The notes under the pieces: model-generated
Database searches by the model: none
Told to the model about the DNA's origin: nothing
What the model saw: only the letters and a program-made list of their open reading frames with translations
IMG/VR virus record: IMGVR_UViG_2778261420_000002
Coordinates: 1 to 5,170 of that record
Length of the DNA stretch: 5,170 nucleotides
Reading direction: 5' to 3' (one strand)
Source of the DNA: a virus
Taxonomy: Duplodnaviria > Heunggongvirae > Uroviricota > Caudoviricetes
Shown here: in pieces, positions 222 to 5,015 of the stretch
Numbering within the stretch: the first letter of the stretch is position 1
Layout of the letters: every line of letters starts with the position of its first letter
Made by a program: the position numbers and the translations under genes

Positions 222-250
222 CACAAAAAAACCCGCATAAAGCGGGTTCT
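222..250 (-). terminator. Rho-independent terminator downstream of Q (tR'-like)
   Basis: On the minus strand: 7-bp GC-rich stem AACCCGC/GCGGGTT (plus 230..236 and 242..248) with a 5-nt loop, followed by a run of 7 T (complement of plus A225..A231). On the plus strand the downstream tract is only TTCTTT, so it is oriented for minus-strand transcripts. Confidence 0.7.
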
Positions 251-300
251 TTCAGGTGTCCATGTCTGCTATTCGCCTCGCGGTATAGCTTTGCGAAGCG

Positions 301-336
301 TAGCTGGATTGAAACAGTTTATGCGTAAAAAATCAA
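301..336 (-). promoter_or_regulatory. Candidate sigma70 late promoter (pR'-like) immediately after Q
   Basis: Minus strand reads TTGATT (complement of 331..336, overlapping the Q stop codon), a 17-nt spacer, then TTCAAT (complement of 308..313). Predicted start near 300, giving a leader of about 75 nt that ends at the 222..250 terminator, the same layout as lambdoid pR'/tR'. Hexamers match consensus only 4/6 each. Confidence 0.3.
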
Positions 337-887
337 GACATTTTTTGAGCAAACGATTCTCGCATAGGGATGTATAGCGCATATTCAGCAACAGCCAACC
401 AATTAGCAATTCGCTTTTCGCATGTACTAAAACACCATTCCGGGTGAACCTCATTCAACAATTCAGCCATTTTGCGTTTACTCATCCCCCGCCCTTCGTA
501 CCTTTGCCGCAGGATATCAATCAATCCAGGATAACGTGCAAGCGCTTTACTTATCACCCCATCAATGCGTAACGCCTCTGCATCAGTACAGTGAGACAAC
601 CAGCTCTTCTGTCTGCCAGCGATCATCTCTCGCAAGAATGCTTCCAGCTCTGGTTTATCAATCCCTGACTCCCTGATTCTACGCAGGGCTTCATTGATTG
701 CGGTTTTTGTCAGTTTTTTGGATGCCAGCAACTGATTGAACATATTTCCTGGTTTGCCACCACCTATATACGACCAACGCCCCCACATCCGTAATTTCCC
801 CTGGATCCAGACGGCTTCCAGCGTTTTTAGACGTAAATGCTCGCCGCTTTTGCCTGTAATTTCCGGGTATATCATATTTACGATCAC
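333..887 (-). CDS. Phage antitermination protein Q (Q21/Q82-like family)
   Basis: 184-aa ORF with an N-proximal LRMWGRW motif resembling the RWGAW motif of Q-family antiterminators. Sits immediately downstream of rusA and upstream of a promoter-plus-terminator module, the canonical lambdoid arrangement. Start is GTG at 887, overlapping the rusA stop (GTGA); an alternative ATG lies at 875. Confidence 0.75.
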   Translation of the reverse strand: MIVNMIYPEITGKSGEHLRLKTLEAVWIQGKLRMWGRWSYIGGGKPGNMFNQLLASKKLTKTAINEALRRIRESGIDKPELEAFLREMIAGRQKSWLSHCTDAEALRIDGVISKALARYPGLIDILRQRYEGRGMSKRKMAELLNEVHPEWCFSTCEKRIANWLAVAEYALYIPMRESFAQKMS

Positions 888-1249
888 TCACTCTCAATTT
901 TGTAAATCTTCACGCCCAGCCGCCCCCCAGGAACGCGCTGACCGCGCACAATATTGATTTCATCAAACTGCTCGTCGTCTATGAGAAGTCCGGCATGCGT
1001 CAGCGCATCCAGTGGTGCTTTCAGGATATTGTCCAGGTCACGACGACGTTTATCCGGTGGCTCTGCAATAATCTTTATCACCAGCCTTCCGGACAGGTTT
1101 AATTTCAGCCGCTGCTGGCGAACAATAAGCGCCACATCACGGCGATAACGCTCACCGGCTTTTGATACAAAATATGTGCTGCCACGACGTCGCCAGTAAG
1201 TGTTCACCGTTGGCGGGTAAGGCAAAACAAATTCTATGCGTTCAGTCAT
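884..1249 (-). CDS. rusA: Crossover junction endodeoxyribonuclease RusA (Holliday junction resolvase)
   Basis: 121-aa ORF (MTERIEFVLPYPPTVNTYWRRRG...DKRRRDLDNILKAPLDALTHAGLLIDDEQ...) with the RusA-family acidic motif (RRRDLDN) and the typical size. ATG at 1249 directly abuts the upstream gene's TGA stop. Confidence 0.9.
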   Translation of the reverse strand: MTERIEFVLPYPPTVNTYWRRRGSTYFVSKAGERYRRDVALIVRQQRLKLNLSGRLVIKIIAEPPDKRRRDLDNILKAPLDALTHAGLLIDDEQFDEINIVRGQRVPGGRLGVKIYKIESE

Positions 1250-2305
1250 TCATGCTTTCCACTTCAGGACACCCGAATTTCTCGCGTGCATTAAAAAACG
1301 AATCAGCAACAACAGCTGGCTGCCGTGTTTTTCTTCAAAATCTTTTACCCCGGCGTGTAGTTCGCTATGGCATTTACGGCACAGCGGAATAACAAACAAA
1401 TCATCAGCCTTTGTTCCCATCCCTCCCAGTCCATGACCAATGATGTGATGCGGATCATCTGCCTGATTGCCACACGTCATGCATTTCTGCGTTTTTACCC
1501 AGCGCGTGTATACAGGCATCTCTTCCCGTCGTGGTTTCTGGCGCTGGAGATACTGAGCCGGTGACTCCGGATCAACGGCAATGCTGACCACCGTCTTTTC
1601 CTGTGGCGGGTTTTGCTGGTGGGCGTGAGGCAGTAGCGCAATATTTTTTGTGCGCTGCTTCAGCATGCTGGTGGAGGTCTGCTCTCCCGGCACGATGTCG
1701 CTTTCGCGGTATACTGAGCGGATTTTTTCCGCGCGTAATCCCAGCGAACGACGTAATACCGTCTCCGGTAGTGCGTCCGCTACGTTATTTATGGTTGCCC
1801 ACCAGGATAATTCAGCCAGCGATAATTCCCGCTCCTGCGTGCCATTCATTGCGTGGCGGATGACATCAATCATCCATGCTGACAGGTTTTGGTGAGCAAG
1901 CTGCCCGAGTGATTCGGAAGTCTGGTCACGCAGCTGGTTGTCGCAGTGCCAGCACAACACCATTGCACCGGTACCGTAACGATGTATGACGGTTTCGCTG
2001 TGATGGTAGTCACCATGAGGCCACTGGCAGGATTTAATGTGGCGTAACAGCCAGTCAGACAGTGCACCAGCACCACCAGCAGCACGAATCACCCGCTCAT
2101 CGCTGAAAAATGGCAGTAATGATTTATCCTCCGCCAATGGCTGGCGAACGGCAGGAACGACTCCGGACGGCAGACCGCGCATGCTTTTCGGTTCCGGCTC
2201 CACCAGTACACGACCGCTGCGGAATACCTGCATGGATTCACGACCAGGCTTAAGGACCACCAGCCCAAGTTCCGGTACCGGAACAGATCGAAGTAATACC
2301 CGCAC
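1250..2305 (-). CDS. Phage protein with C-terminal HNH-like nuclease motif (resembles DUF968 / YdfU-like prophage proteins)
   Basis: 351-aa ORF. The C-terminus CMTCGNQADDPHHIIGHGLGGMGTKADDLFVIPLCRKCHSELH fits the HNH pattern (CxxC...HH...GG...CxxCH..H). GTG start at 2305 is preceded by GGAGG with a 4-nt spacer. Stop abuts the rusA start. The roughly 260-aa N-terminal part has no motif I recognise. Confidence 0.75.
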   Translation of the reverse strand: MRVLLRSVPVPELGLVVLKPGRESMQVFRSGRVLVEPEPKSMRGLPSGVVPAVRQPLAEDKSLLPFFSDERVIRAAGGAGALSDWLLRHIKSCQWPHGDYHHSETVIHRYGTGAMVLCWHCDNQLRDQTSESLGQLAHQNLSAWMIDVIRHAMNGTQERELSLAELSWWATINNVADALPETVLRRSLGLRAEKIRSVYRESDIVPGEQTSTSMLKQRTKNIALLPHAHQQNPPQEKTVVSIAVDPESPAQYLQRQKPRREEMPVYTRWVKTQKCMTCGNQADDPHHIIGHGLGGMGTKADDLFVIPLCRKCHSELHAGVKDFEEKHGSQLLLLIRFLMHARNSGVLKWKA

Positions 2306-2306
2306 G

Positions 2307-2579
2307 TTACCTCCAGATCCGTTGCTGGAATGTGCGGGACGGACGCGGTGGGCGTTCGGAATAAGGGAGTCTGACGGAAATTATCCAGTGTCGGAAGTCA
2401 GAACTGAGGTCTTTCTGAAACTCGTAACCACGTCTGCGGTAGTTCTGAATCAGCCACTCGGCCTGTTCTTCGGTGCAGGGATTGTGCTGATACCAGTCAT
2501 ATTTGAATGTGTGAGAACGCCGCCCGTGCCGGATGGCAAGGTCGGTATCAGAATTGTGTAATTTGGTTTTGTGCGCCAT
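2307..2579 (-). CDS. Hypothetical phage protein, 90 aa (MAHKTKLHNSDTDLAIRHGRRSHTFKYDWYQHNP...)
   Basis: The listed 108-aa ORF begins at a TTG (2633). The first ATG is at 2579, which I take as the start. The TAA stop at 2307..2309 sits inside the SD of the next gene (GGAGGTAACGTG), indicating translational coupling. Basic, Trp-rich small protein; family not recognised. Confidence 0.55.
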   Translation of the reverse strand: MAHKTKLHNSDTDLAIRHGRRSHTFKYDWYQHNPCTEEQAEWLIQNYRRRGYEFQKDLSSDFRHWIISVRLPYSERPPRPSRTFQQRIWR

Positions 2580-2631
2580 TGGTTGTCTCTGCTGGCGCAG
2601 CAGGTGCCAGTTGTTCAGGCTGGCGTGCGGC

Positions 2632-2661
2632 AATATTGTCTCTGATTTCTGTTGTCGTCAA
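2632..2661 (-). promoter_or_regulatory. Candidate minus-strand promoter for the 90aa-HNH-rusA-Q operon, divergent from the TA promoter
   Basis: Minus strand: TTGACG (complement of 2656..2661, 5/6 to consensus -35), an 18-nt spacer, then AATATT (2632..2637). Would restart transcription downstream of the 3315..3394 terminators. The -10 is weak. Confidence 0.25.
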
Positions 2662-2679
2662 CAGGCAACGTGCTATCAT
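2649..2679 (+). promoter_or_regulatory. Candidate promoter/operator of the parDE-like operon
   Basis: Plus strand: TTGTCG (2652..2657), 16-nt spacer, TGcTATCAT (extended -10, hexamer at 2674..2679). A perfect 6-4-6 palindrome CTGTTG-tcgt-CAACAG (2649..2664) overlaps the -35, as expected for an autoregulatory operator of an RHH antitoxin. SD GAGG at 2705..2708 precedes the ATG at 2715. Confidence 0.4.
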
Positions 2680-2714
2680 CGAATAGTGTTCTATCCTACT
2701 CCTTGAGGTTTACC

Positions 2715-2972
2715 ATGCGTACAACCCAACAATTCAGCATTACATTAACTAACGAGATGGCTGACATGGTGCGCGCCCGTGTGGCTTCCGGTGCCTATGC
2801 TTCAGAAAGCGAGGTCATTCGTGAAGGGCTTCGCGCACTGAATGAGCGCGATAAAGCAATCGAAGCGTGGTTAACGCATTCAGCCGCCCCCTCCCTGGAT
2901 TCAATCCGCAAAAACCCGAACAACGGACGCTCCATTTCACAGGTTCGCGCTGCGATTCGATCCGGGAAGTAA
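2715..2972 (+). CDS. parD: Type II antitoxin, ParD-like ribbon-helix-helix (CopG/Arc/MetJ fold) protein
   Basis: 85-aa product MRTTQQFSITLTNEMADMVRARVASGAYASESEVIREGLRALNERDKAIEAWL... shows the N-terminal beta-strand plus two helices typical of ParD/RHH antitoxins. SD GAGG lies 6 nt upstream. Stop is 5 nt before the toxin ATG. The ORF-track start at 2652 is a TTG and was rejected. Confidence 0.85.
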   Translation: MRTTQQFSITLTNEMADMVRARVASGAYASESEVIREGLRALNERDKAIEAWLTHSAAPSLDSIRKNPNNGRSISQVRAAIRSGK

Positions 2973-2977
2973 TCTGC

Positions 2978-3277
2978 ATGACATATGAAGTCATCATTAC
3001 TCCTGAGGCCGAACAGCAGATAATCAACCTGCACAGATACATAACGGAGAAAGCAGGAAGCGTCATTGCTGACAATTATGCCAATGCGCTTCTTGATTAT
3101 CTTGATGGGTTTTCTACATTCCCGCATCGGGGCAATAAACGCGATGATATTCGCCAGGGGATGCGGGTAACTCATTTCCGCCACAGAACGATTATTGCTT
3201 TTGCCGTTGATGGCAGAAAAGTCTTTATTGTCGGTATCTATCATGGTGGGCAAAGTTATGAAACCGATTTCTTATAA
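2978..3277 (+). CDS. parE: Type II toxin, ParE/RelE superfamily
   Basis: 99-aa product MTYEVIITPEAEQQIINLHRYITEKAGSVIADNYANALLDYLDGFSTFPHRGNKRDDIRQGMRVTHFRHRTIIAFAVDGRKVFIVGIYHGGQSYETDFL matches ParE-family size and pattern (ITPEAE...Y, F.V....V.I..I.H). Immediately follows the antitoxin gene and is followed by a terminator. Confidence 0.85.
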   Translation: MTYEVIITPEAEQQIINLHRYITEKAGSVIADNYANALLDYLDGFSTFPHRGNKRDDIRQGMRVTHFRHRTIIAFAVDGRKVFIVGIYHGGQSYETDFL

Positions 3278-3314
3278 ACTTTTACCCACATCATTCCGGT
3301 GTTAGAATAAACCG

Positions 3315-3338
3315 TCCGCCCCCTCTCTTACTGGCGGA
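3315..3338 (-). terminator. Hairpin, possible weak minus-strand terminator (nin-region type)
   Basis: 6-bp stem TCCGCC/GGCGGA (3315..3320 and 3333..3338) with a 12-nt loop. On the minus strand it is followed by CGGTTTATTC. Weaker than the adjacent hairpin. Confidence 0.3.
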
Positions 3339-3359
3339 TTCGTAGGCTATATAAATCAA

Positions 3360-3394
3360 AGATCCCGGCTCATGTTTGTGTCGGGATCTTTTTT
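3360..3394 (+). terminator. Rho-independent terminator ending the parDE-like operon; potentially bidirectional
   Basis: 8-bp stem AGATCCCG/CGGGATCT (3360..3367 and 3382..3389), 14-nt loop, then TTTTTT (3389..3394). On the minus strand the same hairpin is followed by TTGATTTA, so it may also attenuate the convergent phage transcript. Confidence 0.65.
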
Positions 3395-3401
3395 CGGCGA
3401 T

Positions 3402-3485
3402 TTATCCCCAGCGGCAAATCGAATACACCACCAGCGCAACCGCCATTGCAGTTCCTACCGTTGTGAATGCTTCAGGCCAGCTCAT
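3402..3485 (-). CDS. Small hydrophobic peptide, 27 aa (MSWPEAFTTVGTAMAVALVVYSICRWG), predicted single transmembrane helix
   Basis: Not in the ORF track (too short). ATG at 3485 overlaps the upstream gene's stop (ATGA). GGAGG lies 7 nt upstream of the ATG. Hydrophobic core TTVGTAMAVALVVYSI. TAA stop at 3402..3404 is followed at once by the terminator hairpin. Confidence 0.45.
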   Translation of the reverse strand: MSWPEAFTTVGTAMAVALVVYSICRWG

Positions 3486-3745
3486 TGCCTCGCCTCCAGT
3501 CTCCATACCGCCTGACCAATCCGGCTGGCATGGGTATCTTTGGATACTTTTCCGTCTTTAGCCATCTCTATAAGAATTTTGCGCAAATCTGCCGAACGCC
3601 ATTCTTCATCAGGAAATTCCTTCTCCATTGCCAACCGCAGATTCCAGGTTGCTATCGTGAATGGATATTCACCACCGAGAGCTTTCTCTTGTAGGGCAGC
3701 ACGGGAACGCATCACCTGCAAAACCTTCTCTTTTACATCCATCAT
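3482..3745 (-). CDS. Hypothetical phage protein, 87 aa (MMDVKEKVLQVMRSRAALQEKALGGEYPFTIATWNLRLAMEKEFPDEEWRSADLRKILIEMAKDGKVSKDTHASRIGQAVWRLEARQ)
   Basis: The listed 111-aa ORF has an N-terminal extension. The ATG at 3745 is preceded by AGGAGG with a 4-nt spacer and overlaps (ATGA) the stop of the out-of-frame DUF551 tail, so 3745 is the likely start. Family not recognised. Confidence 0.65.
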   Translation of the reverse strand: MMDVKEKVLQVMRSRAALQEKALGGEYPFTIATWNLRLAMEKEFPDEEWRSADLRKILIEMAKDGKVSKDTHASRIGQAVWRLEARQ

Positions 3746-3864
3746 TTCGCCTCCTGCGGCGGTTCTGGTAGCGGCATCCAGTGTGATGGAATCCACGACG
3801 CACCAGGAATTATCCAACCATCATTAGCATCAGGATGTCCCGGTATGTAAGTCGCCCACTTCAT
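3742..3864 (-). pseudogene. Out-of-frame C-terminal remnant of the DUF551 domain (…WATYIPGHPDANDGWIIPGASWIPSHWMPLPEPPQEAK)
   Basis: Translating the minus strand in the frame offset by one from the 3861..4469 ORF gives a 40-codon stretch ending SHWMPLPEPP, the characteristic C-terminal motif of DUF551 proteins. It ends in a TGA that overlaps the ATG of the next gene. Together with the WISCSERMPDSKTAVLV start of the domain in the upstream frame, this indicates a frameshift in an ancestral single gene. Confidence 0.5.
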
Positions 3865-4469
3865 TCGCAGTCACCTTTCCCGTCAAACTCCCTGGCAACA
3901 AGAACAGCTGTTTTGCTATCCGGCATTCGCTCACTACAGCTTATCCAATCATCCGGAGTTGCCGGGGAGCTGGTTGACGAATTCTTATTTTTCCGAAAGT
4001 TTCCGGCCTGAAACATAGCGGCGCGGTGACACCAGATAATCCAGCCAATCGCCATATCCCATGCCATGTATTCACTACCGCCATTTTTTACCCTGCGGCG
4101 ATCTACAGAATCCCCGAAATGCTTCTCCATAAATAACTCATAGGCAGCCCGTTCATCCGGCACCACCAGCATTGGCGGCGTGGCGTATAGCTTACGGGTC
4201 TGAACACCTGCCTCCTGGCATTTCTCTTCCTCAACAAATCTTTCGAAAGCATATTCCCCGCAATCTTCCCATTCTCCCCATTCATCATATTCTGCATCCC
4301 ACTGGCGATACTGATATGCCACTGGCTCTGCTTCCAGCGATGCCAATACAATTTTGAATAACTCGCCCTCTACTCGCGCCATCCCTGAATTGGGGTGGCA
4401 TTTCGTAATCGCTATTTTTAATTTGGCTTCTTCGATTAATTGTTCTTTTGTTAATTCAGTCATTTTCAT
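3861..4469 (-). CDS. Phage protein with C-terminal DUF551-like domain, apparently truncated by a frameshift
   Basis: 202-aa ORF; ATG at 4469 (MKMTELTKEQ...). The C-terminal WISCSERMPDSKTAVLVAREFDGKGDCE matches the start of a DUF551 domain but stops early; the rest of the domain is in another frame (3742..3864). The N-terminal roughly 160 aa is acidic and Trp-rich. Confidence 0.65.
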   Translation of the reverse strand: MKMTELTKEQLIEEAKLKIAITKCHPNSGMARVEGELFKIVLASLEAEPVAYQYRQWDAEYDEWGEWEDCGEYAFERFVEEEKCQEAGVQTRKLYATPPMLVVPDERAAYELFMEKHFGDSVDRRRVKNGGSEYMAWDMAIGWIIWCHRAAMFQAGNFRKNKNSSTSSPATPDDWISCSERMPDSKTAVLVAREFDGKGDCE

Positions 4470-4559: not shown

Positions 4560-5015
4560 TTATTCAGTTTTTATTCCTGCTCTCAAAACAGCCTCTGCCA
4601 TTCTGATATCCGGATTTTCTGAAATCATCTTTTCCGGCGAGTCGCAATCACCACCACATTCAGTTATGCGTTCATGACCAAAACGAATTGTGGTTTTGTG
4701 CGCATTAATCATTTGTGTAAGCGCGTCTGTCAATTCTGCAATGCGTTTGTCTTTAACTTCCAGCTCTTTCAGTAAAGCCAGTACGTCAGGATCGCTAACA
4801 TCAACGACGGTTACGCGCGATTTCAGGTAATGTTCATCCGCAAAAGTTCGACCAGTTTTAAAATATCCATCATCCCCCTCACATGTGCAGGCATACACAA
4901 TATGCGTTCTGGGAAATATGCGCTGTATCGACATTTCATCGCCACAAACAGGACATTCCGGCACCTGAATTGGTGAATAACGTTCACGTAATGCCTGGTA
5001 ATTAGTCTTGCACAC
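4560..5015 (-). CDS. Hypothetical phage protein with N-terminal zinc-ribbon-like Cys motif and central coiled-coil-like segment (possibly Ead/Ea22-like)
   Basis: 151-aa ORF. CPVCG...CTC Cys cluster near the N-terminus, heptad-like LALLKELEVKDKRIAELTDALTQMI, C-terminal ECGGDCD. GTG start at 5015 is preceded by GGAGA with a 6-nt spacer and overlaps the upstream ORF by 14 nt. First in-frame ATG is at codon 28, which would remove half the Cys motif. Confidence 0.65.
   Translation of the reverse strand: MCKTNYQALRERYSPIQVPECPVCGDEMSIQRIFPRTHIVYACTCEGDDGYFKTGRTFADEHYLKSRVTVVDVSDPDVLALLKELEVKDKRIAELTDALTQMINAHKTTIRFGHERITECGGDCDSPEKMISENPDIRMAEAVLRAGIKTE

Follow-up and report, generated by a model that had tools for sequence, protein, structure and literature searches.

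A ParD/ParE-type toxin-antitoxin cassette as probable moron cargo in the nin-equivalent region of a Rac/Qin-like lambdoid prophage

In classical ParDE systems (Caulobacter ParD1-ParE1, PDB 3KXE, and the system of plasmid RK2), an autorepressing ribbon-helix-helix (RHH) antitoxin is paired with a gyrase-poisoning toxin (PMC8706911), and the same mechanism would be expected, by family, of the pair described here. Gyrase inhibition is the usual activity of ParE toxins, and modules of this type act to stabilise prophages (PMC8706911; PMC12548467). The prophage-borne ParESO-CopASO system of Shewanella oneidensis maintains the excised prophage CP4So (PMC8706911), and ParE2 of Escherichia coli O157 has been reported to act without gyrase inhibition (PMC8706911).

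We analysed a 5,170-nucleotide stretch of phage DNA (hereafter the window) that carries a ParD-like and a ParE-like gene in tandem, and conclude, with a probability of about 0.85, that the region is a functional, autonomous ParD/ParE type II toxin-antitoxin operon, inserted as a moron where a Rac/Qin-like lambdoid prophage has its equivalent of the nin region (Table 1). That the cassette is a toxin-antitoxin module is virtually certain. It is an ordinary ParD/ParE module that public databases already name as such: the RefSeq names are ParD family antitoxin and RelE/ParE family toxin, and PHROGs places both proteins in its moron category. In the literature on ParDE, prophage and nin-region toxin-antitoxin systems we found no study of this particular parD-parE pair, the significance of which lies mainly in correct annotation, the pair being common yet uncharacterised.

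Table 1. Features of the parDE cassette and its junctions (window coordinates; promoter, operator and terminator assignments are candidates).
Feature	Position	Strand	Description
Left junction of cargo	2630-2662		AATATT box (2633-2638) and palindrome GTTGTCGTCAAC
Promoter-like site	2632-2661	-	TTGACG, 18-nt spacer, AATATT; 9/12 in scan; candidate
Palindrome	2651-2662		GTTGTCGTCAAC; overlaps parDE -35
Candidate parDE promoter	2652-2679	+	-35 TTGTCG (2652-2657), 16-nt spacer, extended -10 TG-n-TATCAT (-10 at 2674-2679)
Conserved block	2681-2700	+	AATAGTGTTCTATCCTACT; between -10 and Shine-Dalgarno; candidate ParD operator or 5' UTR element
Inverted repeat	2683-2694	+	ATAGTGTTCTAT (ATAG-N4-CTAT); 3' of -10, within the conserved block
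parD	2715-2972	+	ATG 2715 to TAA 2972; 85 aa; ribbon-helix-helix antitoxin
parE	2978-3277	+	ATG 2978 to TAA 3277; 99 aa; ParE-class toxin, RelE/ParE superfamily
Weak hairpin	3314-3339	+	UCCGCC, 12-nt loop, GGCGGA
Candidate intrinsic terminator of parDE	3358-3394	+	Hairpin 3358-3391, stem of 12 bp or more, then T6; T-run ends at 3394
27-aa hydrophobic ORF	3402-3485	-	MSWPEAFTTVGTAMAVALVVYSICRWG; unannotated; right-hand phage backbone adjoining the cassette

The source phage is a lambda-like, Rac/Qin-like E. coli prophage in which parDE runs on the strand opposite to the early-right genes. The original prediction, made from the window alone, had described parD and parE as its only plus-strand genes, separated by 5 nt and lying antisense within the nin region. 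The open reading frames bear this out (the gap reads tctgc), as does the annotated, 98.7%-identical genome NZ_CM129038: in its window-matching stretch, parD and parE are the sole plus-strand coding sequences and every flanking gene is a minus-strand phage gene, with the replication genes on one side and a DUF968-RusA-Q-like block on the other. An Rfam scan of the whole window (E up to 1) gave no match in or near the cassette and two sub-threshold matches elsewhere.

Comparison with relatives places the limits of the cargo at about 2630-3401, an almost exact match to the interval first proposed (2632-3394), for which such a synteny comparison had been suggested. Homology of the left flank ends at 2596 in the Qin prophage of K-12, at 2600 and 2625 in further relatives with other cargo, at about 2629 in sampled genomes that lack the cassette, and at 2662 in strain C5; homology to the cassettes of ArgO145 and PA8 starts at 2632, and right-hand backbone homology starts at 3401-3402. 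The Qin prophage, originally cited as a precedent for toxin-antitoxin genes in this position, turned out to be homologous in fact, as K-12 ydfU and its upstream sequence align to window positions 1379-2596, after which K-12 has rem-hokD-relE-relB. Besides this rem-hokD-relBE cargo, the same left junction is followed in relatives by hokD, by doc together with hokD, or by an unrelated gene, and the slot of one O157:H7 prophage is filled by a methyltransferase/ATPase cluster. This confirms that Rac/Qin-like prophages have an exchangeable toxin-cargo slot between their replication genes and the DUF968-RusA-Q block; what fills it (parDE, relBE-hokD, hokD or doc) depends on the strain. The left flank is present in 2,867 E. 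coli genomes.

Two neighbouring open reading frames were considered and set aside. The left neighbour (2307-2579) shows no similarity to K-12 Rem; the K-12 DNA homologous to it carries no annotation, and rem is found on the far side of the junction. The 27-residue hydrophobic frame to the right accompanies the cassette in five contexts and is in frame in all five (once with an in-frame 6-nt deletion), but it is not part of the toxin-antitoxin module, because the same 84 bp occur in E. coli genomes without parDE (for example, L015 and L016), where they form the end of blocks of early genes.

At 90% identity or more, the parDE cassette is present in 328 of 5,426 complete E. coli genomes (6%), STEC and ETEC included. 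The same cassette, at 96% identity, occupies a different phage context in the Stx phage ArgO145, in the early-left arm, and one cassette travels as a unit among lambdoid prophages, Stx phages, a myovirus-like tail module and genomic islands. The only full-length match in a plasmid search was a single 1.4-Mb 'plasmid' record, which argues against a recent plasmid origin. The proposal that this is a self-contained moron is supported by its own candidate promoter and terminator (the promoter and 5' UTR conserved, the terminator covarying, as detailed below), by the variable cargo found at the same junctions and by the second context in ArgO145; the distinct base composition of a moron was not seen, the G+C content in a composition profile being 0.44-0.52 for the cassette and 0.40-0.57 for the flanks.

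By analogy with the family, the cassette's sigma-70 promoter would drive, in the lysogen, a bicistronic parD-parE mRNA ending at the 3358-3394 terminator. ParD dimers would bind the conserved promoter-overlapping sequence through their N-terminal RHH domain and repress the operon, and the C-terminal third of ParD would wrap ParE and neutralise it. Were expression to stop, through prophage loss or host shut-off, labile ParD would be degraded and ParE freed, most likely to poison DNA gyrase and arrest growth. Judged from its relatives, gyrase is the favoured toxin target, at somewhat better than even odds. The net effect would be that of a prophage addiction module, possibly also aborting infection by superinfecting phages, and we consider it about equally likely that it serves chiefly to stabilise the prophage or to defend against phages.

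The strongest competitor to an addiction role, possible if rather doubtful, leaves the ParDE identity intact and holds that the cassette serves mainly to abort infections in defence against phages: an infecting phage would shut down host transcription or trigger ParD degradation, and ParE would halt the cell before the invader finishes. Toxin-antitoxin systems often serve against phages (PMC12548467), the slot is a cargo hotspot (hokD, doc, relBE and the O157:H7 methyltransferase/ATPase cluster all occur there in relatives), and homologues are accessory genes in several unrelated prophages. However, PADLOC has no model for either protein (a scan of ParD, ParE and their neighbours against PADLOC-DB 2.0, at E up to 0.01, gave neither antitoxin nor toxin a defence family), and we found no report of this pair in defence; no sequence feature tells defence and addiction apart.

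The best-conserved parts of the module are the ParD N-terminus and the DNA upstream of it. In the profile searches proposed with the original prediction, ParD scored above the cut-offs of two ParD models (Pfam PF03693, ParD_antitoxin, 32 bits, cut-off 21; NCBIfam TIGR02606, ParD family, 54.1 bits, cut-off 46.2) and matched phrog_6494, 'antitoxin', at full length (E = 9e-56). Its significant PDB matches were all ParD antitoxins (3KXE, 7YCV, 6X0A, 7B22, 8C24 and 5CEG), with ParD1 (3KXE) at the top, and the others were weak matches to the RHH protein NikR (E about 0.8). Residues 3-51 align to these ParD structures with E = 4e-4 to 6e-3 and, judged by sequence, form an N-terminal RHH domain related to the solved ParD antitoxins. 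The co-oriented order of ParD followed by ParE is kept in E. coli, Salmonella, Yersinia and Enterobacter loci, with a ParD_antitoxin gene directly upstream of each toxin homologue in the latter three genera.

In Enterobacter, upstream conservation exceeds that of the coding DNA: identity to the window is 76% over the 70 nt upstream of parD, 68% in parD and 63% in parE, and the stretch from the -35 to the Shine-Dalgarno sequence (candidate GAGG, 2705-2708, 6 nt upstream of the parD ATG) is conserved as far as Yersinia and Enterobacter. In a set of 8 diverged loci (Yersinia and Enterobacter included), the extended -10 keeps its TGCTA without change, CGTCAA at the left junction is likewise invariant, and the block at 2681-2700 is nearly so. 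The parDE promoter matches the consensus at 9 of 12 positions plus the TG in a sigma-70-like scan; because that scan returned 3 sites in 1.5 kb against 1.2 expected, it is by itself weak evidence. Likewise, the patterns GTTGTCGTCAAC and ATAGTGTTCTAT each occur once in the window, but both were picked after the sequence had been viewed, so these counts are not a fair test. The promoter and operator are candidates called from consensus and conservation. Of the cassette's own promoter and palindromic operator, as first proposed, the promoter and 5' UTR hold up across genera; in Yersinia and Enterobacter the right arm of the ATAG-N4-CTAT repeat shows departures. Binding of ParD to its own operator, repression of the operon and neutralisation of the toxin are predicted, with indirect support from the conserved promoter and 5' UTR.

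A further promoter-like site lies on the minus strand, back to back with the parDE -35 and directed towards the DUF968-RusA-Q-like block. Its -35 is invariant and, by eye, an (A/T)ATATT box lies at the same distance in ArgO145, Salmonella and Yersinia even though the spacer has diverged; the box is not kept in Enterobacter. This arrangement, together with the concentration of conservation in the ParD N-terminus and upstream DNA and the retention of a parD orthologue without parE by O157:H7 Stx2a phages (PMC12502783), would fit a reading in which ParD is the key part, acting on phage genes or on other toxin-antitoxin systems, and ParE merely enforces retention. The shared palindrome and a divergent promoter might let ParD regulate phage genes nearby, or ParD might serve as an anti-defence antitoxin mimic. 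We regard this as improbable: purifying selection on parE is equally strong (dN/dS about 0.10, against 0.04-0.07 for parD), parE is kept in the 328 genomes, and the divergent promoter is only a consensus match and is absent in Enterobacter.

In a related and speculative extension beyond passive addiction, a long shot in our estimate, GTTGTCGTCAAC would hold two back-to-back -35 elements, such that ParD occupancy would control both parDE and the outward minus-strand promoter. If so, the TTGACG-18-AATATT promoter would restart the DUF968-RusA-Q-like antiterminator block past the cassette terminator, so that expression of the prophage late genes would depend on the amount of antitoxin. On a related reading, the O157:H7 Stx2a phages that have parD only would mean a toxin-independent ParD function, regulatory or anti-defence.

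Returning to the ParD/ParE operon, the toxin is very probably ParE-class rather than a RelE-type RNase. It exceeded the cut-off of Pfam PF05016 (ParE_toxin; 41.5 bits, cut-off 23, full length), a model of the whole RelE/ParE superfamily that does not separate ParE from RelE, and matched phrog_5232, 'toxin', also at full length (E = 4e-43). An NCBIfam scan gave no family at E up to 0.01, which means that no specific model covers this subfamily and does not contradict membership. A profile built from 83 sequences of the toxin family and run against the PDB matched 10 ParE-class sequences (E = 1e-12 to 8e-4), among them 6X0A (1e-12), 8C24 (3e-9), 5CEG (4e-9), 3KXE (1e-7), 7YCS, 6XRW, 5CW7, 7ETR and 7R5A, and no RelE, YoeB, HigB or YafQ chain at E up to 10. 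The AlphaFold model (pLDDT 82; strands 4-7, 61-67, 71-78 and 81-89, helices 9-26 and 28-46) predicts a ParE-type fold, with an N-terminal two-helix hairpin packed on a three-stranded sheet, and Foldseek ranks 1-23 were all ParE-class chains (TM 0.65-0.74). A point against the assignment is that solved ParE toxins share no more than 12-24% sequence identity with this one.

The rival view, that the toxin is a ribosome-dependent mRNA endonuclease of RelE type acting as in RelBE despite its ParD-type antitoxin, draws on the breadth of PF05016, on a RefSeq name that says merely 'RelE/ParE family' and on conserved residues (basic residues, among them Arg, plus His89 and Tyr94) compatible by sequence with RNase chemistry. 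It is quite unlikely, since the profile matched ParE-class chains only, RelE, YoeB, YafQ and HigB all ranked below the 23 ParE-class chains with much lower TM (0.39-0.57), and each lineage examined had ParD as the partner antitoxin. The antitoxin has its matches in ParD and not in RelB, and both the toxin profile and the predicted fold favour ParE, in agreement with the original description of the pair as ParDE-like rather than RelBE.

Two hairpins had also been predicted in the cassette. The one at 3358-3391 stands, folding at -20.7 kcal/mol on the plus strand (z = -3.6) and at -19.2 kcal/mol on the minus strand (z = -2.6), where it is followed by UUUGAUUUAUAU; with an A-run to the left and a T-run to the right, the terminator is potentially bidirectional. 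In a Salmonella locus (L009) its arms carry compensatory changes, from GATCCCGG..CGGGATC to GAGCCCGG..CGGGCTC. The other hairpin (3314-3339) is weak: at -12.9 kcal/mol (z = -1.4), with 20 of 200 shuffles folding as well, it is not significant alone; its sequence is conserved in Salmonella. Both parD and parE show strong purifying selection by their dN/dS (0.04-0.11 across both genes). That the cassette is a decaying, non-functional remnant in a defective prophage, as pseudogenes in the host prophage might suggest (cro frameshifted in a near-identical genome, DUF551 split within the window), is scarcely credible given this selection on two intact reading frames, the conserved regulatory DNA, the covarying terminator and the presence of the cassette in 328 genomes at 90% identity or more.

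Among solved systems, the closest relative of the toxin is ParD3-ParE3 of Mesorhizobium opportunistum (5CEG; chimera 6X0A), which holds Foldseek ranks 1-3, is a match for the antitoxin as well (E about 2e-3 to 6e-3) and has the same gene order, with an RHH ParD upstream of ParE; it differs in sequence (only about 21-24% identity) and belongs to an alphaproteobacterial chromosome rather than to a phage. Classical ParDE systems provide the top PDB match of the antitoxin (ParD1) and a toxin profile match at 1e-7, but reside on plasmids or chromosomes, and the gyrase target known for them is presumed for the pair described here. PaaR2-PaaA2-ParE2 of E. coli O157:H7 prophages (5CW7) likewise has a ParE-class toxin (Foldseek TM 0.73, profile 1.4e-5), but is a three-component system with a small antitoxin unrelated to ParD. 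The relBE-hokD genes of K-12 Qin share the genomic slot and are likewise prophage-borne type II toxin-antitoxin cargo; however, they belong to the RelB/RelE family, with an mRNA interferase as toxin, and are co-directional with the phage genes, whereas parDE runs antisense to them and lacks a hok gene. ParESO-CopASO of S. oneidensis prophage CP4So (7ETR) is a distant relative only, with a prophage-borne ParE-class toxin (profile 1.4e-4) and a CopA-type antitoxin rather than a PF03693 ParD, but its maintenance of the excised prophage offers, by analogy, the best precedent for a stabilising role of parDE.

Chromosomal prophages of E. coli 700481, AST19, TD225-C4 and B7A matched the window over its full length at 98.7–99% identity. 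In the matching stretch of an annotated near-identical genome, every phage gene is on the minus strand, and parD and parE, situated between the phrog_2814 and phrog_1212 genes, are the only annotated plus-strand coding sequences, as originally predicted (neighbouring gene assignments agreed with Pfam and PHROGs). By this gene order, the cassette has the replication genes on one side and the Q-like gene on the other, a location that corresponds to the lambda nin region, and it runs opposite to the early-right operon, in line with the antisense placement that had been proposed. Two details of the flanks were also recorded. DUF551 profile positions 2–24 fell in the longer and positions 30–68 in the shorter of two overlapping minus-strand ORFs, suggesting a frameshifted gene (the near-identical genome has a DUF551 pseudogene annotated there). 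Directly downstream of the Q-like gene, a sub-threshold, non-significant match to the Rfam isrK Hfq-binding sRNA (21.6 bits against a gathering score of 50, E = 0.17) overlaps a terminator-like hairpin in what is probably a tR′-type region.

Features of the window, right to left, with adjoining genes of the annotated near-identical genome (annotated copy)
Feature	Position	Strand	Source or size
Cro/CI family regulator (Cro-like; frameshifted per annotation), YdaT, replisome organizer, DUF977, DUF4406, in this order		-	annotated copy
ead/Ea22-like	4560-5015	-	annotated copy
DUF551 gene, split	3861-4469 + 3742-3864	-	annotated copy
Hypothetical gene, phrog_2814	3482-3745	-	annotated copy
Small hydrophobic ORF	3402-3485	-	27 aa
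Terminator hairpin	3358-3391	+	
Second hairpin	3314-3339	+	
parE	2978-3277	+	99 aa
parD	2715-2972	+	85 aa
Candidate parDE promoter	2652-2679	+	
Promoter-like site	2632-2661	-	
Hypothetical gene, phrog_1212	2307-2579	-	annotated copy
DUF968/YdfU	1250-2305	-	
RusA	884-1249	-	
DUF1133/Q-like protein	333-887	-	
isrK-like match	226-299	-	
Methyltransferase, tRNAs, lysis genes, terminase	past window, after Q-like gene		annotated copy

Profile searches against ParD and ParE models placed both proteins above family cut-offs. The antitoxin scored 32 bits against Pfam ParD_antitoxin (cut-off 21) and 54.1 bits against the ParD family antitoxin model TIGR02606 (cut-off 46.2), aligned end to end with phrog_6494 ('antitoxin'), and had as significant PDB matches only ParD antitoxins from ParDE complexes. 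The toxin, separated from it by the expected 5 nt, scored 41.5 bits against Pfam ParE_toxin (cut-off 23) and also matched phrog_5232 ('toxin'), with no match to a specific NCBIfam model. Because the Pfam model spans both RelE and ParE, these were tested separately: toxin profiles from database relatives (20 sequences, then 83) matched only ParE-class chains in the PDB (6X0A, 1e-12; M. tuberculosis ParE1, 3e-9; 5CEG, 4e-9; PrpT, 3e-8; Caulobacter ParE1, 1e-7; P. aeruginosa ParE, 6e-7; O157 ParE2, 1e-5; ParESO, 1e-4; Vibrio ParE2, 8e-4), and RelE, YoeB, HigB and YafQ chains were all absent, even at E up to 10. Against an AlphaFold model of the toxin (pLDDT 82, pTM 0.75), 23 ParE-class chains ranked first (TM 0.65–0.74), followed by RelE-type RNases (TM 0.39–0.57). 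Antitoxin models, toxin profile and fold rankings all back ParDE rather than RelBE, as had been proposed, for a toxin family of 2,528 cluster representatives (E up to 0.001) whose member here shares just 12–24% identity with solved ParE toxins. Conserved basic residues, His89 and Tyr94 are present, so the toxin's chemistry is not readable from its sequence; gyrase inhibition is not universal among ParE-class toxins (PMC8706911).

Both genes are under strong purifying selection, with dN/dS of 0.04–0.07 for parD (against the copies in Stx phage ArgO145, ECL27977, Salmonella and Yersinia) and 0.10–0.11 for parE (against ArgO145, ECL27977 and Salmonella); dS reached saturation for parE in Yersinia and in both comparisons with Enterobacter. 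A ParD_antitoxin gene lies directly upstream of the toxin homologue in the Salmonella, Yersinia mollaretii and Enterobacter ludwigii loci examined, and the N-terminal DNA-binding half of ParD is nearly invariant.

The cassette also has a candidate promoter and a terminator of its own, as in the original prediction. The promoter is sigma-70-like (TTGTCG-16-TGcTATCAT), with GAGG 6 nt upstream of the parD ATG. A 12-nt palindrome, GTTGTCGTCAAC, overlaps the −35, and past the −10 comes an ATAG-N4-CTAT repeat; the window contains one instance of each, a count that proves little for patterns picked after sequence inspection. Across eight loci, the 95 nt 5′ of parD contain invariant blocks at the −35/palindrome core (CGTCAA), at the extended −10 (TGCTA), at AATAGT.TT..ATCCTACT and at the Shine-Dalgarno; the ATAG/CTAT repeat varies somewhat in its right arm, so the exact half-sites of this candidate operator are not fixed. 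In Enterobacter, the upstream 70 nt retain 76% identity, versus 68% for parD and 63% for parE. Of the two hairpins predicted downstream, the one at 3358–3391 is convincing by fold (−20.7 kcal/mol, z = −3.6, followed by T6), with paired compensatory stem substitutions in Salmonella, and the one at 3314–3339 is no better than shuffles (z = −1.4). The terminator hairpin also folds on the minus strand (−19.2 kcal/mol, then UUUGAUUUAUAU) and is potentially bidirectional. The conserved upstream DNA, ParD N-terminus and covarying stem are what one would expect in an operon that regulates itself and has its own terminator.

A promoter-like site on the minus strand (TTGACG-18-AATATT) faces the DUF968–RusA–Q-like block; it meets the parDE −35 back to back within the invariant palindrome. 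In the upstream alignment, as read by eye, ArgO145, Salmonella and Yersinia keep an (A/T)ATATT box at the same distance although their spacers have diverged; Enterobacter lacks it. It is conceivable, if doubtful, that the palindrome holds back-to-back −35 elements; the conservation could equally reflect a plus-strand element or chance.

Toxin–antitoxin cargo at this slot is textbook for the K-12 prophage Qin, where left-flank homology ends at 2596 and gives way to rem-hokD-relE-relB. It ends at 2600 in E500002 (then doc plus hokD), 2625 in ATCC 43886 (then hokD), about 2629 in sampled non-cassette genomes (then varied cargo) and 2662 in strain C5 (then an unrelated 110-aa plus-strand ORF); ArgO145 cassette homology starts at 2632. 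On the right, 3401–3485 belongs to the backbone, since E. coli genomes that lack parDE contain it too. These comparisons delimit the cargo to about 2630–3401, essentially the extent first read from the sequence (2632–3394); G+C content does not set it apart. The C5 cargo (L006, 3501–3994), whose protein has weak coiled-coil-like family matches, is accompanied by the 2600–2662 segment, palindrome included, and has the small ORF on its right; one upstream element thus serves two different cargos. In O157:H7 380-94 (L016, 1–2650), genes for a DNA cytosine methyltransferase, an O-methyltransferase and an ATP-binding protein adjoin the small-ORF junction, possibly a restriction or defence cluster in the cargo slot.

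The small ORF itself is unannotated and hydrophobic (MSWPEAFTTVGTAMAVALVVYSICRWG), begins with an ATG that overlaps the preceding gene's stop codon (ATGA), and matches phrog_4612 weakly. Its frame is kept in ArgO145, C5 and Salmonella, and also in ECL27977, where 6 nt are deleted in frame; the 84-bp segment, without annotation in the loci examined, lies at the end of lambdoid early-gene blocks in parDE-less E. coli (for example, L015 and L016). An unrelated 37-aa hydrophobic ORF in E. ludwigii (L012, 4327–4440, minus strand), convergent with and immediately 3′ of parE, may resemble it by coincidence.

Among 5,426 complete E. coli genomes, 328 had the full cassette, in every case on the chromosome; the same left junction was found in 328 genomes, and the two sets probably coincide. 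Four phage records, three of them from Stx phages, have a 96%-identical cassette in another location, the early-left arm, where it is again antisense and has an ORF6N anti-repressor on one side and a hypothetical/HNH pair on the other. Of the more distant copies, the Salmonella one is antisense in a lambdoid nin region, the Y. mollaretii copy (L010, 3738–5848; ParE identity 67%) lies inside a myovirus-like tail module between tube protein and tape measure, and the Enterobacter copy is in an integrase/IS island. Other toxin–antitoxin genes accompany some copies: about 1 kb from the Salmonella parDE, beyond an ORF6N gene in the same nin region, is another antisense pair resembling higBA (a HigB-like toxin gene and an HTH gene; L009, 2097–2659), and in Yersinia a 63-aa ParD fragment and a YafO-toxin gene come after parDE and make up a cargo cluster with it among structural genes. 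parD occurs alone in 45 phage records, most of them Stx2a, and in about 37 genomes; in the O157:H7 PA8 Stx2a prophage (L004, 3983–5043), an intact parD orthologue (PF03693, 85% nucleotide identity) without parE precedes a 90-aa protein without a Pfam match and a HigA-like HTH protein. A 2025 paper (PMC12502783) remarks on 'orphan ParD and HigA antitoxins' among the phages of EHEC.

Taken together, these comparative analyses show an intact, selected and, as judged from its signals, autonomous ParD–ParE operon. By family analogy, ParD dimers would repress the promoter via the ribbon-helix-helix domain and the C-terminal third of ParD would neutralise ParE; were synthesis to stop, ParD would decay and ParE would arrest growth, most likely by trapping gyrase. 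During lytic growth, early-right transcripts would have to pass the potentially bidirectional hairpin and then ~680 nt antisense to parE and parD, which, speculatively, might lower parDE expression. Abortive-infection defence is as plausible a role as prophage maintenance. No PADLOC model matched ParD or ParE. For maintenance, ParESO–CopASO in prophage CP4So offers a precedent for a prophage-borne ParE-class module (PMC8706911), and stabilisation by such a module has been proposed for O157:H7 prophages (PMC12548467). Literature searches found no experimental study of this particular pair. RefSeq names for it already exist (WP_001297790.1 and WP_001297793.1), PHROGs files both proteins as moron toxin and antitoxin, and the ArgO145 genome record labels them toxin–antitoxin components; the pair is best described as a known, already annotated member of the ParDE family.
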